From Eremomyces bilateralis CBS 781.70 (lineage: Eukaryota), in NCBI GenBank assembly GCA_010015585.1, contig ML975159.1: a DNA stretch of 64,000 nt, one strand, 5' to 3'. The notes beneath the pieces are model-generated. The model searched no databases. It had not been told where the DNA came from and saw only the letters and a list, made by a program, of their open reading frames with translations. The position numbers and the translations under genes are program-made. Position 1 is the first letter of the stretch. Each line of letters begins with the position of its first letter. Below, one piece after another: positions 2-8,433 of the stretch.

Positions 2-238
2 GGCCATCAGGAGATTGCCGCCCTGCTCTTAGACAAGGGAGCAGATATTAATGCCCAGGGCGGCGAGTACGGCGACGCTCTCTATGCCGCTTCATCTGGA
101 GGCCATCAGGAGATTGTCACACTGCTCCAAAGAATTGGCTCTATTACATCTTCAAAGCGGCCCGGCTCTATGGCTCCAAGCATCGCGGCGAAGAAATTAT
201 GTGTCATGCACCCTGAGCCTTCTGATCAAACTCAATAA
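2..238 (+). CDS. 3' end of an ankyrin-repeat protein (fungal NLR-type repeats); 5' part lies outside the window
   Basis: Frame 2 reads GHQEIAALLLDKGADINAQGGEYGDALYAASSGGHQEIVTLLQ...TQ* (TAA 236-238). GADINAQGGxYGxALxAAS is the ankyrin unit typical of fungal NACHT-ankyrin proteins. Not in the ORF track. Confidence 0.85.
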   Translation, partial: GHQEIAALLLDKGADINAQGGEYGDALYAASSGGHQEIVTLLQRIGSITSSKRPGSMAPSIAAKKLCVMHPEPSDQTQ

Positions 239-727: not shown

Positions 728-1559
728 CGACCTACGACTTACAGCGTTATATTTTTTCTAAATATTGATTGAGTTGGGGTTTGGGGGGCAGGTTTCTTAA
801 GTACGAAATGGAATCGGTGATAGATAACTCTGGATGGTTCTAGAAGAGTTGTCTCATTCTCCACCACACAGGAGTGGGGGGTTGTCTTACGCCTACACGC
901 TAGATTGAATCACACTTTCCAACTTAGCTCGCTCTTTGCTTTTAGGACTCAATCATTCTGAGGCTAAGAGCGGTTCTGCACCCAGGAGAATCCGGTGTGC
1001 TCCAGAAGTAGTTAGGCTTCACCAGCCACAGATCCCAGACTTGGCAATGGAACTAGTAATAACTTGATGCAGGCCAAGGCATGAGCTCTAGGAGCCTCAG
1101 GCTACAAACTGCATTAATACATGAACGATCTCGATTCAGGCCAAAAATCAATGACAGAATCCTCAGGCTATTTGGTCGAGGACCATACCAATTAGGTATA
1201 GCGCGGTTCGTTGCCTCAGGCACGACCATAATGGCCTGAGCTTGCTGAGGTAAAAGGCGACGCGAAGGCAGCATTGCTAGATTCAGGTGGAAAGTGATGT
1301 ACTGATAGATTTCGTATTAAAAACATAATAACGTACTCCACAAGAGAGTGGTCAATACAATCGAGCTGTCAAACCTAACCACGAAACTCCCGTGAGCCAG
1401 GACATGGAGTTGAAAAAACATGTCCTCTAAGTCGTCCAGTTACTACAGATTAGTGTTTTTCTATCGGAATTTCATATAATTAGGGCGTTGTAGAGATATC
1501 TGTAATTGAAGTGGTTTGGTTTGGCTGGGGCTGACTGCTCGCTTGTGGAGTACGATATA

Positions 1560-2084
1560 CAGTAGAATCCCGATATAACGATAGGATACCAGCCACCCTT
1601 TTTCTATCGTTATATCGAAATATCGTTCAAACGATGATTACAGCAGCCAACTATCTAATCTACTTTGGGTATAGCTTGATGTGAGGTCGAGCTGAAGCTG
1701 ACGCTCCAATCGATTGAGACATCGAATATCACCTTATGTTGAAGTCTCGCTATGTTTTTGATAGTATTGTAGAGCCCGTAAAGCCTTGCGAGCCTTTTGC
1801 TTTGATGGAATTGGAGATAATGGTATCTCCTCCTCCTCCTCCTCCTCCTCCTCCCCCTCTGTCCTAATAGCCTGCGTGATAATAGCTTGCAGCGAAACCT
1901 CCTCTGCAAGTCAGAGATACCCTTACGAGGCATCGTGTATAACGATATTGGTGGGGAAAGGTTAACGATTAATCGAATATCGGGATCAGGGGAAATTTGT
2001 ATGAGGAAAAATCGGAATGGCATATTTGTATCGCTATATCGGGATTATCGCTATTCCGGGAATCGCCATAACGAGATTCTACTG
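1560..2084. mobile_element. Tc1/mariner-pogo (Tigger-like) MITE, 525 bp
   Basis: TA at 1558-1559 and 2085-2086. Imperfect TIRs: left CAGTAGAATCCCGATATAACGAT, right (reverse complement) CAGTAGAATCTCGTTATGGCGAT. Subterminal copies of the CCCGATATA(A/G)CGAT motif and an internal (CTC)n tract near 1826-1853. Confidence 0.85.
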
Positions 2085-2221
2085 TATATCTAACTTATAG
2101 TTACAATTAATAGAATGCTAAAAAATCTTGTTGATTAAATTCGTTTGTTTCCCTTGGGAGACTTGGAGGTTTAGACCTCAGTTTTGGGATCTGTTTAGTT
2201 TTTTTTTTGGCATAGAGCGTG

Positions 2222-3297
2222 TTAAGCTTTCTTAGCTCGGTGAAATAACTCCACTTGAGCACCAAGGCGGCCAAATAGCTCAGACTCCATTCTCGCCGCT
2301 GCCCTTGGACCGTGGAGTATATCACCAACAATATCAGAACCAGGCGGGAAGTCATGCTCAAAGATCGGCTCTCCAGCACCCCTCATATTGGCTAAAACTG
2401 CCTGCCTAAAGTGCCAGCGTAAAACAGAATCAAGAGGTGCATCAGGACGAGCAAAATACCCTGGATCAAGGTGATGGCTACCAATGCCTCGCGCGTTAGG
2501 CCTGAAGGCCATGACCTTGTAATTGTCCTGCGATAACACTTTAGCCACAATTTCCATAAATAGGTATTAAACGTACGTCTGGGTTGATTGAAATGAAGTA
2601 GTTATCAAAAAGCTGGTGCATGACGGAATCAAGCAAGATTCCATTCTGAACCGAGTTGATAGTGCCTCCACGAGGCGGCTCAATCGAAACCCATCGACCG
2701 TAATCATTGTTAATCCAATGACTTTCGTAGGCTAATGGGAAAATATGCGAGGCTTCGAAGCCGTCCCAGATATCAATTCCGCCAAGTGTGATGATGTTTA
2801 GCCCGGATATAACGCATTTACGATCTCGCGAACGGACGGACTCGCAGAAACTCGCGACACGAGTTCCGGTAGCATGAGAAATCGTTCGGACGAGGAATGC
2901 TTCATCGGTCACATTAAACGACCCTGCCCACATGTTAGCACTACAACTATACGTCAAGAGATGACTACAACAACTAACCAGCCGAAACAATAAAGTATTT
3001 CCCAGGTTGAAGAGGACCGTCATCTTTTTCGACTTTTGTTCCTCCCTCATATTGTAGACTAAAGGTGTTTGTGAATATGACAAGAATCTCCACCATTAAG
3101 TAGAGGTTGGCATTTGTAACTCCGGGAGTAAGAACCAGGCCACCAAGTGCGACATTAGTGTTGTTGGCGTCATGAATATGGACATCGCGTCCAACTGAAC
3201 GGTCGAGTCGAGGCATAGAACTTTGTGACGAAATCGGAGGGCCAGAGTTGGCAGAGCGAGAGCCTAGCGACCTGGGAGACGACGACGACGGCGACAT
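2222..3297 (-). CDS. HNH endonuclease (HNH_2-type) protein with a small N-terminal domain, paralog A; 3 exons
   Basis: Exons 3297 (or 3216)-2979, 2923-2577 and 2527-2222, joined by GT..AG introns in phase. Motifs RDRKCVISG, FEASHIFP, SVQNGILL, MHQLFD, SINPD and LRWHFRQAVLANMRGAGEP. Confidence 0.85.
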
Positions 3298-3495
3298 GAT
3301 GGACATTTGGGGTGTGAAGTTTACGTGAGGGTACGAGATAGTAGGCGCAGGCTTGCAGCGAGCAGAGATGGAGGATGGAAATGTAGGTGCGATCGAGCAA
3401 TGACGTTGCAGGTACAAGAACCGAGAATCTGCCGGTTCAACTTCTGTGGTAACTTTTACTAATTACTAGGCGTTTTGGTGAAGAAGAATCGCACT

Positions 3496-3512
3496 CACGT
3501 GACGCACGTGAC
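3496..3512. promoter_or_regulatory. Tandem E-boxes (two CACGTG) in the spacer between the HNH pair
   Basis: TCACGTGACGCACGTGAC, with CACGTG at 3496-3501 and 3505-3510; a bHLH-type site. Confidence 0.35.
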
Positions 3513-3533
3513 CAACATACTTCTGGAATGCTT

Positions 3534-3630
3534 GAGTATTGCGCGTGCCAAGAAGGATCCTGATCTGGCTCCTTCACAAAATCAAAGACTGCAGATTTCT
3601 GCGGTCCTTGATGCTAGATCGACCCGAATA
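3534..3630. repeat. Dispersed relic repeat, copy 1
   Basis: CTGGCTCCTT..AAAATCAAAGACTGCAGATTTCTGCGGTCCTTGATGCTAGATCGACCCGAATA aligns by eye with 8936-9077. Confidence 0.7.
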
Positions 3631-4157
3631 AAGGCAGATGAGATCAACCTAGGCGAACATACCCAGCAAGTTCTCCTGTGGGTTAAACCCCCTTACCAAC
3701 CCAGCTCCATTCCCTTTGCGCAATATTACGATTTGCCGCCAGACAAGAGTAGAAGAATAATAAAAGCATATCAGTTTCTCGGGGCATTCCTTATATATAA
3801 GAGGCAAGAACTTGTGGCCGGGTTAAACTGGCCGTCGTCCTAAACAGGCCTTTCACCTAAATGGGCTCCTCATCCCATGCTGACCGAGCCCAATCACAGA
3901 TCACTTTGGTTGAGTAGTCTGCACCTAACCTCTTCTGGTTTAGTCACCGGTCCCTACCAAGATCCTAGGTATTGGCTAGCCTTAATTGGTTAGCGCAGCT
4001 TCGCTGATCACGACCAACATCTATCCTCCGAACCATCATACTTTCCATCAGCTCAGAAACATCTTGTAAGTACTTGCTAAACTGCAAGCCTGCACCTGAC
4101 GCCTACTGTCTACCCTCTACTCGTCCTTATGCATCCTCTGCAACTCAATATTCCACC

Positions 4158-5217
4158 ATGTCGTCCTCGCCGTCCCCGAAAACGTCAGCTTCTCCCTCCG
4201 CCCTCAATCTTCTGAATCAGCAGCAAAGATGCACTATGCATCCAATCAATCGCTCAGCTGGGCGAACTGTCCATATCTACAATACCAATGACCCTGATAC
4301 CGTGCTCGGTGGTCTGGTACTCACTCCTGGCGTTACAAACTCCAACTTCTACGCTATGGTGAAGATTCTGTTCATATTTTCAGGCCCGTTCTACCTACGA
4401 GTGGAGAACGGAGCAAGGATTGAGAAGGATGATAACCCGCTTCGTCCTGGAAGGTATCATATTATTTCCGACGGTCAGTTTGGCAACACTTCATTTCTTG
4501 ATGAAGTAACATAGTTAATTTGTTAGCAGCTTCTTTTGATGTCAATAACGAGCCATGGCTCGTCCGAACGATCAGCTGTGCTTCTGGATCTCGTGCCGCC
4601 GCCTTTACCGAAGCCGTTCGTTCTCGAGATCGTCGATGTATTATTTCTGGGGCCAATGTGTATACATTTGATGGCGTTGATTTCTGGAACGGCTTTGAAG
4701 CGGCGCATGTTTTTCCGCTAGCCTATGAAGGCTACTGGGTCGAGCGCGGCTACGGCAGGTGGATTACAATGCAACCAACAATAGGAGGATCTATCAACTC
4801 AGTGCAAAACGGAATGTTGCTTGCTTCTGATATACACCAACTCTTTGATGCTTATGACTTCTCGATCAACCCAGATGTATGTTTCTCTCATCTAATATTA
4901 GAGATTCTGGCTAATTTCTATCTTAGGACAACTATAAAGTTGTGGTCTTCAGACCTAACTCAAGAGTTGTTGGTGACCAACATCTCGATCCAACGTATTT
5001 TTCTCGCCCAGATGCACCCGTCGATTCACTTCTACGATGGCACTACAGACAGGCCGTCTTGGCCAACATGAGGGGTGCTGGGGAGCCGGTCTTTGAACAT
5101 GACTTTCCACCTGGCTCAGACATTGTTGGCGTCATACTCCATGGCCCGAAAGCTGCTGAAAGGATGGAATTCGAACTGTTTAGCCGCTTCGGTGCTCAAA
5201 TGGAGTTGTTCTCGTAG
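4158..5217 (+). CDS. HNH endonuclease (HNH_2-type) protein, paralog B; 3 exons
   Basis: CCACCATG start at 4158 (alternative 4236). Exons 4158-4473, 4530 (or 4527, a NAGNAG acceptor)-4876 and 4927-5217. Motifs RDRRCIISG, FEAAHVFP, SVQNGMLL and IHQLFD. Intron positions match paralog A. Confidence 0.85.
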
Positions 5218-6023
5218 TCAAGCAAACATGAGTGTTTGTTCTAAGATAGAGAGAATCGAAAGTCTCAAACATGTCCACATCCCCAGGACGTCAACCCTTC
5301 CTGCGCCTCACCATCTAACCCGCTCCAACCTTCCGAGTCCGTAGCAAAGTTCTATCATGGTACGCACAGCCGCTTATTCGACTGGCTTGGCCATATCTTC
5401 GATGTCAACGACCCTGATACCGGGTATGGTGGTCTAATCTTCACTCCGGGCTCTATAAATCCCAATTTCTTCTTAAAGGGAGAAGATTTCATATATCTCT
5501 TCAAGGTTCTTCTATATAAATGATGATAGAATGGGGTTGTGCAATAGCGGCGGCCCGCTGGCTAGTCGCACGTGGCCTACTGCTACAGTTCCAGTTCGCT
5601 AGCAAGATCGAAGAAGAGGGCCGTTCAGGATTCGCGCCGTTCCAAGGGATTAGGGAAGAATAGGAGGAGAATGAGAGGAATGGGGTATGGCTGTGTAACG
5701 GAGGCGGTTCGCAAGATATCCGCGAGAGCGGAAGCAGTGGTTCCCAGCAGTGAACAACAATTGAAGATAAAAATAGGTCTGTGGTGCATAAAGGCAACCT
5801 TTCTGTCACCGCCACAGGCCTGGAACCATAACAGGTATAGTTTCTTAATAAGACACGTTTCGATCCAACACCTAGTGTCCTCACAAGTCACAACCATCCT
5901 GCCGCGCTATGTTGAATCTTGCCGCGCTTCACACTTCCATACTCCACGACCGCTATATTTGTGTGAGCTTCGTATATACGCCTAGGTCGCTTAGCATCCA
6001 CGACTGCTTACTTTTTCAGATGC

Positions 6024-7247: not shown

Positions 7248-8008
7248 TGTGTCGCATAATAAGAACGTAGCTAATCAGCGATATCGACGCCGCCCATGAA
7301 ATGGTTATAGTCGTCAATAAAGATAGGAATAGGAAGCTCTTTTCGTACGTCGTTTCCAAAGACCTTACGCACAAGGGGTCCATTGGTAGACGTAATCGCA
7401 GGGCGTCGTCGGTCTCGTATAATTGTCTGTTCTTCACCGGCCCTGTGGACTGTGGAGCAGGCTAAAACAGTATTGTTATCTTGCCACGCAAAGCAGAGAA
7501 TGCCTGGGTCAAGTAGATCCTCCTCTTCCTCCTCCTCCTGCTGCTGCTGTGTACTTTGAGACGGCTTACACGACGTCTCCCTTTTAATCTTCTTCCGCGC
7601 GACAATAGCAGCAGTTGTGCTCCATTGTAGATGCTTTGAGCAATGCTCTATTAGCTCGACTAGGAGTTGAGGAAGCTCAGGGTGCCTTCGCGTCGTACCA
7701 CAGGCTCCAATTCCAACCTCACGCAGCCTGCGAAGAATAGGTATCCCAGTAAAGAGACTGTCCATGTAGATAATATGAGGAACACCCTCTGGGAGCGACT
7801 TGGCGAGCCGTAGTACTAGTGACTCGGTCATAGTAAGATCTTTCTGCTTAACTATTTCACCGTAGCTCTCTGTTTTCGACGACCAGGTGAAAAAGTAGGT
7901 ATATCCAGCCTCGCAGAGCGCGAAGATCTTATAGCCTTCTTTAATTGGCTTGTATGGGGCCTTGAATGTATGCTTACTTCGGCCAAAGAACCTAACCATC
8001 ATCTCGTC
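7248..8008 (-). pseudogene. piggyBac-family transposase relic
   Basis: Motifs DEMMVRFFGRS..KPIKEGYKIFALC..YMDSLFT..GACGTTR..WQDNN..DYNHFMGGVDIAD*LRSYY. TAG sits where Q (CAG) is expected and the 5' end is missing. A possible terminus TTAA|CCGTCG lies at 6346-6355. Confidence 0.9.
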
Positions 8009-8433
8009 GAAGGGATACGGTAGGGGAGCGCCGTCACGGCGGTTTTTCGACGCCCAAGTGAAATGACGGCTGCCGCTGCGTTTCAGCCTTTCATCGCTCT
8101 TTCTTTCCCTTACTTTGATGAATGAAAGAACACGTACCTCTTGCCTAATATCAAAAAGCTAGGATGCAGAGAACGAGCGAGTTCCACGGCGCGATCGATG
8201 GCCACATTGTCATTCCAGCTCCGCATAGCAGGCCAGGCGGGAGGACGAACTTCAACTTCGGTTATCCGCCAAGATAAGGTGGATACGCTCCCTAGTTAGG
8301 AGTTTTAGCTAACTAAATAGTCCCTCCGATTCATCGTTATGGCAGGGATAGATGTAGATCCCCACATGGCTCTTGAAGATACGAAGCGTAAACCATTATC
8401 TTTCAGGGAACAAATATCTCTGGGTCGACAATC

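Follow-up and report, generated by a model that had tools for sequence, protein, structure and literature searches.

A head-to-head pair of genes, here called A and B, occupies positions 2222..5217 of a 64,000-nucleotide stretch of contig ML975159.1 from the fungus Eremomyces bilateralis CBS 781.70 (the whole stretch is referred to below as the window). Both genes are ordinary, canonical members of a known Pezizomycotina family, whose proteins combine the Pfam domains DUF7881 and HNH_2. We propose that A and B are probably old, independently functional paralogs within a local cluster, made up of A, B, and a decayed third copy, and that their head-to-head arrangement is incidental. The pair had been singled out from the sequence as the best candidate in the window for an undescribed system. 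That description goes too far, as DUF7881 and HNH_2 are already Pfam families and the proteins are already public under the name "HNH nuclease domain-containing protein."

Four lines of evidence lead to the conclusion that the pair is no dedicated module: A and B belong to separate ortholog groups, their orthologs in Zopfia lie on different contigs, none of the 36 informative loci of relatives has a divergent partner, and no neighboring gene is conserved.

Two intact members of a known nuclease family

Gene A lies on the minus strand within 3306..2222, and gene B lies on the plus strand within 4158..5217. Each has three exons and an open frame, encoding 326 amino acids (A) and 317 amino acids (B) from the first ATG. 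In A, exon 1 (3306..2979) encodes a Ser/Pro-rich leader and the DUF7881 domain, which is predicted to be ubiquitin-like; exon 2 (2923..2577) encodes a linker helix and the HNH_2 core; and exon 3 (2527..2222, including the stop codon) encodes the end of the nuclease fold and a conserved tail. The exons of B (4158..4473, 4530..4876, and 4927..5217) follow the same domain order. Intron positions and phases are equal in the two genes, with intron 1 in phase 1, directly after the N-terminal domain (N-domain), and intron 2 in phase 0, after the residues INPD. The two introns of A are 55 and 49 nucleotides (nt) long; those of B are 56 and 50 nt.

Public E. bilateralis CBS 781.70 proteins match both models. 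Protein P0028 (296 amino acids, same contig) is an exact suffix of the gene A model, with its start methionine encoded at 3216, while P0001 (291 amino acids) is an exact suffix of the gene B model, to which it is 100% identical, with its start methionine encoded at 4236. The public annotation thus uses the same splice junctions and departs from our models only in its later start methionines. The leaders upstream of the annotated methionines (3306..3217 in A and 4158..4235 in B) are in frame and lie inside RNA contigs. Moreover, they resemble the annotated N termini of relatives, which are MSSSPSPKTS-like, as evidenced by tblastn (e.g., residues 2 to 108 of Zopfia P0002). Because the leaders align with N termini that are annotated in relatives, the longer forms of A and B are probably the real ones, and the public 291- and 296-residue models are probably truncated at the N terminus.

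Evidence for transcription comes from the RNA contigs of one public run, X1. The contigs skip all four introns, with joints at 2526/2576 and 2922/2978 in A and at 4472/4529 and 4876/4927 in B, and every joint fits GT..AG on the coding strand; run X1 therefore contains spliced RNA of both genes. The depths of these contigs cannot rank A against B, and their ends, at 3452 for the contig of A and at 4088, after adapter letters, for the start of the contig of B, are not mapped transcript ends. Models, public proteins, and RNA contigs agree on what the original prediction had described, namely, two divergent three-exon genes with identical intron positions. As a side observation, the contig carrying spliced gene A is 2,284 nt long, 1,035 nt of which lie left of 2100 (about 1065..2221). 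This leftward extension crosses AT-rich sequence that includes a (CCT)n run (about 1829..1857) and is either a very long 3' untranslated region (UTR) or an overlapping transcript.

The small N-terminal domain and the HNH nuclease that had been recognized from the letters correspond to DUF7881 and HNH_2. DUF7881 (PF25324) is matched in exon 1 of both genes (A, 113.4 bits and E = 5e-33; B, 117.9 bits and E = 1.9e-34), against a Pfam gathering cutoff of 27 bits, and the full HNH_2 profile (PF13391, positions 1 to 66) is matched in exon 2 (A, 55.2 bits and E = 6.6e-15; B, 58.3 bits and E = 6.7e-16), against a cutoff of 21 bits. Exon 3 of A and B matches no Pfam family. Among the 120 homologs listed, 115 have both domains and 5 have HNH_2 alone. 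Their sources are the Dothideomycetes, Eurotiomycetes, Leotiomycetes, Pezizomycetes, Lecanoromycetes, and Geoglossomycetes, and the lifestyles represented include saprobes, lichen fungi, and truffles alike. At least seven of the homologs listed come from Eremomyces, for which copy number and synteny were taken from the public protein table alone, and at least eight come from Zopfia rhizophila. A profile of the N-domain by itself matches 540 cluster representatives (50% identity clusters, E <= 0.001).

In an alignment of 75 members, which represent six fungal classes, identity to B ranges from 46 to 79%, and 99 columns are at least 90% conserved. The HNH residues H139, N169/N173, and H182 (P0001 numbering) are invariant or at least 90% conserved, and an invariant R..RDxxC stretch precedes the HNH motif. 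Both A and B retain the catalytic His/Asn/His residues, as had been noticed from the sequence. Highly conserved columns are retained at 97 of 99 positions in B and at 95 of 99 positions in A, with a family median of 97, and so there is no sign that either has decayed into a regulator or antidote. The C-terminal tail of the family is strikingly conserved (P0001 residues 252 to 291; window about 5098..5214; ..FEHDFPPGSDIVG..GPKAAERMEFELFSRL). In comparison with other Pezizomycotina DUF7881-HNH_2 proteins, A and B share both domains, the length class, and the conserved tail, and they differ only by their head-to-head position and by the tandem relic beside B.

Some close relatives (L002, L003, L013, L016, and L021; 53 to 65% identity) look intronless, in that their matches span about three nucleotides for every residue matched, and other relatives have the two introns, as A and B do. 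The presence of intronless relatives beside two-intron ones indicates intron loss or retrocopying within the family.

Ancestry of the pair and its genomic surroundings

Proteins A and B are identical at 199 of 317 aligned residues (63%). The Nei-Gojobori method gives a nonsynonymous rate (dN) of 0.25 and a synonymous rate (dS) of 1.70, which is saturated, for a dN/dS ratio of 0.147. This ratio falls from 0.68 in the leader to 0.21 in DUF7881, 0.09 in exon 2, and 0.06, the lowest value, in exon 3. Judged by these substitution rates, both A and B are under purifying selection, with a ratio that is not near 1. Exon 3 is also the best-conserved part at the protein level, as had been noticed, although "near-identical" overstated an identity of just 76 to 79%.

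A quick tree of 71 named homologs and a careful tree of 28 rows agree on the ancestry of the two genes. In the careful tree, A groups with Zopfia P0011 (96/90), whereas B groups with Zopfia P0002 (94/84) and with a second Eremomyces copy, P0003 (97/92). A single clade of A and B was rejected (log-likelihood difference, 25.2; approximately unbiased test, P = 0.011). The two Zopfia proteins, P0011 and P0002, are encoded on different contigs, of 1,393,080 and 1,831,616 bases, respectively. Because A and B fall into separate ortholog groups that each include Zopfia, the duplication predates the split between Eremomycetaceae and Zopfiaceae, which are Dothideomycetes families, the former placed in its own order. 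The original prediction was therefore right that the duplication is old.

To date, the arrangement around relatives has been surveyed in metagenomes, where 489 relatives were found and 80 loci (57 locus groups) were kept. A further copy or fragment of the family is present at 8 of the 80 loci; seven of these are on the same strand, and one (L074) is divergent and 4.7 kb off. At the 36 loci where at least 2.5 kb of upstream sequence is available, the first 2.5 kb never contains a divergent partner, and at four of them it contains a tandem copy or fragment. Also, no conserved neighbor gene was found among 1,356 flanking open reading frames (ORFs) of the 57 locus groups. One ORF family alone, a GDE1-like ankyrin/C2 gene, recurs in at least three of these groups, and its recurrence points to synteny. 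Local duplication is thus common in the DUF7881-HNH_2 family, and the head-to-head pair is no conserved module. At four loci (L008, L015, L017, and L018), several of which may come from one species, we observed a C-terminal fragment (query residues about 181 to 316) positioned 0.7 to 0.95 kb upstream of the full copy on the same strand.

The divergent intergenic region of A and B measures 851 bp between the two ATGs (3307..4157) and holds both 5' UTRs and, presumably, both promoters. Between 3452 and 4088, there is little or no contig cover in run X1. A leader motif, CTGCAAGCCTGC then GCCTACT, lies on the minus strand at 3340..3358, in the 5' UTR of A, and a second copy lies on the plus strand at 4083..4108, at the very start of the B transcript contig or just within it. 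The similarity between the two leaders consists of a 12-base exact match and a few further bases, and its local alignment score of 28 (19.1 +/- 2.3 in shuffles) was reached by 2 of 300 shuffles. The small leader match that had been reported from the sequence is hence real, but it cannot be read as neutral relic homology left by the old duplication, because dS is saturated at about 1.7. Between the 3' flanks of the two genes, no similarity is seen (score of 17 versus 18.4 +/- 2.2 in shuffles). The motif was also considered as a family-wide regulatory element and was rejected, since its 12-mer is not enriched upstream of relatives: it occurs in 1 of 58 upstream regions at two or fewer mismatches, which equals the background.

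The third member of the cluster is a degenerate copy in tandem with B, on the plus strand at 5299..5502, which begins 82 bp past the B stop codon and was found by tblastn. It retains only a leader and the first half of DUF7881, with no HNH part. It is 36 to 59% identical to nine family proteins by tblastn and is the sole extra family site in the window. The DUF7881 match of this relic (E = 6.5e-4, 20.1 bits) is below the 27-bit cutoff. Low-depth RNA contigs cover the region, including one at 5312..5600.

Beyond this cluster, a partial piggyBac-type transposase ORF lies on the minus strand at 7274..8158 (DDE_Tnp_1_7; E = 2.2e-19; profile positions 130 to 313 of 349), and it is the only transposon remnant found near A and B. 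The neighborhood had been described as containing transposable elements and HET genes. Of the former, the piggyBac-type remnant is all that was found nearby; as for the latter, a Pfam scan found no HET domain in 119 window ORF translations, some of which were scanned twice, although such a scan may miss short degenerate pieces. At the left window edge, an ankyrin-repeat gene enters on the plus strand with its end (2..235). The remainder of the window, from 10252 to 64000, contains genes that are housekeeping by their Pfam matches, namely, Yip1, Rit1, an AP-complex mu subunit, a C2H2 zinc-finger piece, NOG1, a phosphoribosyltransferase, MTP18, a cyclin, a MINDY deubiquitinase, Gcd10, and an RFC subunit.

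Predicted structure and bacterial relatives

From 75 aligned sequences, AlphaFold produced a model of B with a predicted local distance difference test score (pLDDT) of 79.8 and a predicted template modeling score of 0.81, in which the nuclease part is confident. The N-domain (residues about 10 to 90) is modeled with pLDDT above 90 in a beta-beta-alpha-beta-beta-beta topology, with strands at residues 12 to 16, 19 to 27, 46 to 48, 53 to 56, 72 to 77, and 82 to 84 and a helix at residues 35 to 45. Residues 252 to 291 of the tail have pLDDT below 50. The most conserved stretch of the family (P0001 residues 252 to 291) is thus the lowest-confidence part of the model, and such a pattern is often seen in segments that become ordered upon binding a partner or within an oligomer.

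Structural comparisons of the model returned two groups of matches. In an exhaustive search, TagI (6ghs) ranked first (Z = 10.9; 117 residues; root mean square deviation [RMSD], 3.9) and VcaM4I (6yex) ranked second (Z = 10.4; 116 residues; RMSD, 2.7), with alignments that cover model residues of about 97 to 245. The remaining 48 of the best 50 matches cover residues of about 4 to 86 with Z scores of 6.5 to 7.9, and by title, they are almost all ubiquitin-like (Ubl, UBX, SUMO, ISG15, FERM F1, and MoaD). Foldseek likewise placed TagI (E = 1.0e-3) and VcaM4I (E = 1.3e-3) at the top of its list, with no match strictly at E <= 0.001, and reported many ubiquitin chains with template modeling scores by target of 0.55 to 0.66. 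A structure search of the Atlas retrieved other DUF7881/HNH clusters, followed by TUG-UBL1, UBX, RBD, and RnfH. By sequence, the family profile yielded one chance-level match only among solved structures (E = 0.6). The model therefore supports a ubiquitin-like beta-grasp fold for the N-domain (residues about 8 to 85), as had been guessed from its sequence pattern, and this assignment is made because the matches are consistent with one another rather than because of any single match.

TagI and VcaM4I are dimeric, modification-dependent restriction endonucleases, and no other structures matched the linker and nuclease part of the model as well; identity in the aligned part is 18 to 21%. Like the A/B family, these enzymes have an N-terminal accessory domain, a linker helix, and a C-terminal HNH domain. 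However, their accessory domain is an SRA/EVE reader of the PUA superfamily, whereas A and B have a ubiquitin-like domain of about 75 residues instead; no SRA, EVE, or PUA Pfam match was found in the N-domain at E <= 1 or at E <= 10. The A/B family also adds the conserved tail of about 45 residues, and unlike TagI and VcaM4I, it is eukaryotic, intron-bearing, and multicopy. Mechanistic insight comes from VcaM4I. According to work on that enzyme (PMC7897488), VcaM4I-type enzymes dimerize through their HNH domains and make double-strand breaks, and VcaM4I is held inactive by its linker helix and N-domain, while the bare HNH domain is a toxic, nonspecific nuclease.

A further point of comparison is the His-Me finger survey by Jablonska et al. 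(2017), in which (PMC5714182) HNH_2 is the Pfam family of group 6 (AlwI, BbrI, and HphI), with 120 fungal members, and also that of the Crinkler CR-HNH effectors in group 38. A and B belong to the Pfam family given for group 6. That survey had already counted fungal members, and its section 20 is silent on their N-domain.

Possible function and alternative explanations

A and B share a protein layout that consists of a variable Ser/Pro-rich leader, the DUF7881 domain with its predicted ubiquitin-like fold, a linker helix rich in invariant Arg, Asp, and Cys, an HNH_2 nuclease predicted to be of the beta-beta-alpha-metal type seen in TagI and VcaM4I, and a family-specific tail that is very conserved and predicted to be unstructured. 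Their head-to-head order would come from local duplication or rearrangement. By analogy with what is described for VcaM4I (PMC7897488), the nuclease domains would dimerize and use a metal ion to cleave DNA, with the N-domain and linker restraining the nuclease until a signal arrives. The ubiquitin-like domain, perhaps together with the tail, would then act as a protein-controlled switch that replaces the modified-base reader. Since the fungal proteins have a ubiquitin-like domain where their bacterial relatives have such a reader, a protein partner is a likelier trigger than a DNA mark.

We also posit that a conflict or defense nuclease fits the data better than a housekeeping enzyme does. This is the weakest step in our argument. 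It draws on copy-number expansion, local duplications, relics, the nearby transposon remnant, and a row for PF13391 among the presence/absence-variable genes of Botrytis and Sclerotinia, in PMC6525431.

Several points weigh against our proposal. Identities of 46 to 79% across fungal classes, together with the low dN/dS ratio, would also suit a housekeeping role, and a literature search found no functional study of the DUF7881-HNH_2 family. Most of the loci from metagenomes represent relatives at a greater distance (42 to 65% identity), with some redundancy (57 groups among 80 loci), and in Maublancomyces gigas, two family members are an adjacent pair by locus tag (Q9L58_006860 and Q9L58_006861). 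The 12-base leader match and the common intergenic region leave room for coregulation of A and B. At the level of mechanism, dimerization and autoinhibition would be borrowed from bacterial relatives with 18 to 21% identity, and the predicted ubiquitin-like fold is backed by matches of middling strength (Z scores below 8; Foldseek E values of 0.2 to 0.5).

The first alternative is a housekeeping nuclease for DNA repair or processing, duplicated here by chance. Such a role would account for the very strong conservation across six Pezizomycotina classes, for the low dN/dS ratio, and for the expression of both genes, and housekeeping genes fill the window from 10.2 kb onward. Nevertheless, two species have seven to eight or more copies per genome, and tandem copies and truncated relics, the PF13391 presence/absence row (PMC6525431), and the lack of a conserved synteny partner among the locus groups surveyed likewise argue in another direction. 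We consider a housekeeping role unlikely.

Second, A and B might form a coregulated heterodimeric nuclease, expressed from one bidirectional promoter, in which each gene provides one active site. Their divergent orientation around a common 851-bp region, the spliced RNA contigs of both genes in a single run, and the 12-base leader match are all in keeping with this idea. Moreover, the structurally closest enzymes dimerize via their HNH domains (PMC7897488), and so paralogs with 63% identity could plausibly cross-dimerize. However, the pairing is not kept, as evidenced by the 36 loci and by the Zopfia orthologs on different contigs. Most family members are solo, which means that their basic state must be homodimeric or monomeric. 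Each of the two copies is canonical, without complementary residue loss, and the leader motif was not found enriched upstream of relatives. A dedicated heterodimer is, in our estimation, improbable.

Third, Crinklers offer a close parallel in design. Their headers are described as ubiquitin-like in a review (PMC5289972) and belong to Pfam family PF20147 according to PMC9815663; besides its assignment to CR-HNH effectors (PMC5714182), HNH_2 is given for two Plasmopara CRNs (PMC8044898). A and B have the same fold order as the Crinklers (CR-HNH; AeCRN13/BdCRN13), in which the HNH_2-type nuclease comes after a ubiquitin-like N-domain, and a classical signal peptide is absent in both (the A/B N terminus was judged by eye; for Crinklers, see PMC5289972). 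In contrast, the LxLFLAK and HVLVxxP motifs described there are not visible by eye in the N-domains of the A/B family, and none of 12 N-domains matches PF20147 or any ubiquitin-clan family at E <= 10 in a sequence-versus-profile comparison. The 32 longer N-domain representatives comprise 13 with HNH_2, 18 DUF7881-only fragments, and 1 with a weak XRN1 piece. No N-domain relatives were found among proteins of 511 to 2,000 amino acids, which is weak evidence, and an Atlas search for feature look-alikes of the N-domain left none after HNH_2 clusters were excluded. Since the N-domain is seen only with HNH_2, its behavior is unlike that of the shuffled headers of Crinklers. The Crinkler-like architecture put forward in the original prediction stands as far as fold order goes; the Crinkler resemblance is one of design, not membership. 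A Crinkler-type translocated effector, in which the ubiquitin-like header would carry an HNH toxin into other cells, also sits poorly with a family that is not confined to pathogens and is shared by saprobes, lichen fungi, and truffles, and we regard it as very improbable.

Finally, a toxin-antidote, spore-killer, or incompatibility module, with one copy as the killer nuclease and the other as its regulator or antidote, is the least credible explanation and has hardly any chance of being correct: copy-number expansion, pseudogene relics, a nearby transposon remnant, and the toxicity of the isolated HNH domain of VcaM4I (PMC7897488) would suit it, but both copies retain the catalytic and nearly all conserved residues, the duplication predates the Eremomycetaceae/Zopfiaceae split and each copy has its own ortholog elsewhere, neither the pairing (0 of 36 loci) nor any partner gene (57 locus groups) is conserved, and a dN/dS ratio of 0.15 comes with no sign of diversification in any segment except the leader. 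The dedicated toxin/regulator or drive module that had been suggested for the pair thus loses its footing.

Returning to A and B as independently functional paralogs, a bolder extension can be sketched, although we hold it to be doubtful. The family would be a Pezizomycotina-wide, cell-internal conflict nuclease that derives from bacterial type IV restriction HNH enzymes, its reader having been swapped for a ubiquitin-like switch. Heterodimers would form among clustered, coexpressed paralogs, A and B included, and would widen or tune the range of targets, which might be foreign or repeated DNA or incompatible nuclei; the tail would dock the trigger; and the Crinkler-like design would have been reached independently.

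The pair itself is of little importance, being one more local duplicate in a locally duplicating family. The family, in turn, is noteworthy: it is large, strongly conserved, and expressed, it extends across many classes of filamentous ascomycetes, and it has an intact predicted nuclease related to bacterial defense enzymes. If these proteins are indeed defense or conflict nucleases under ubiquitin-like control, then they would constitute a new class of fungal immunity-like systems, and the Crinkler design would have a second example that arose independently.

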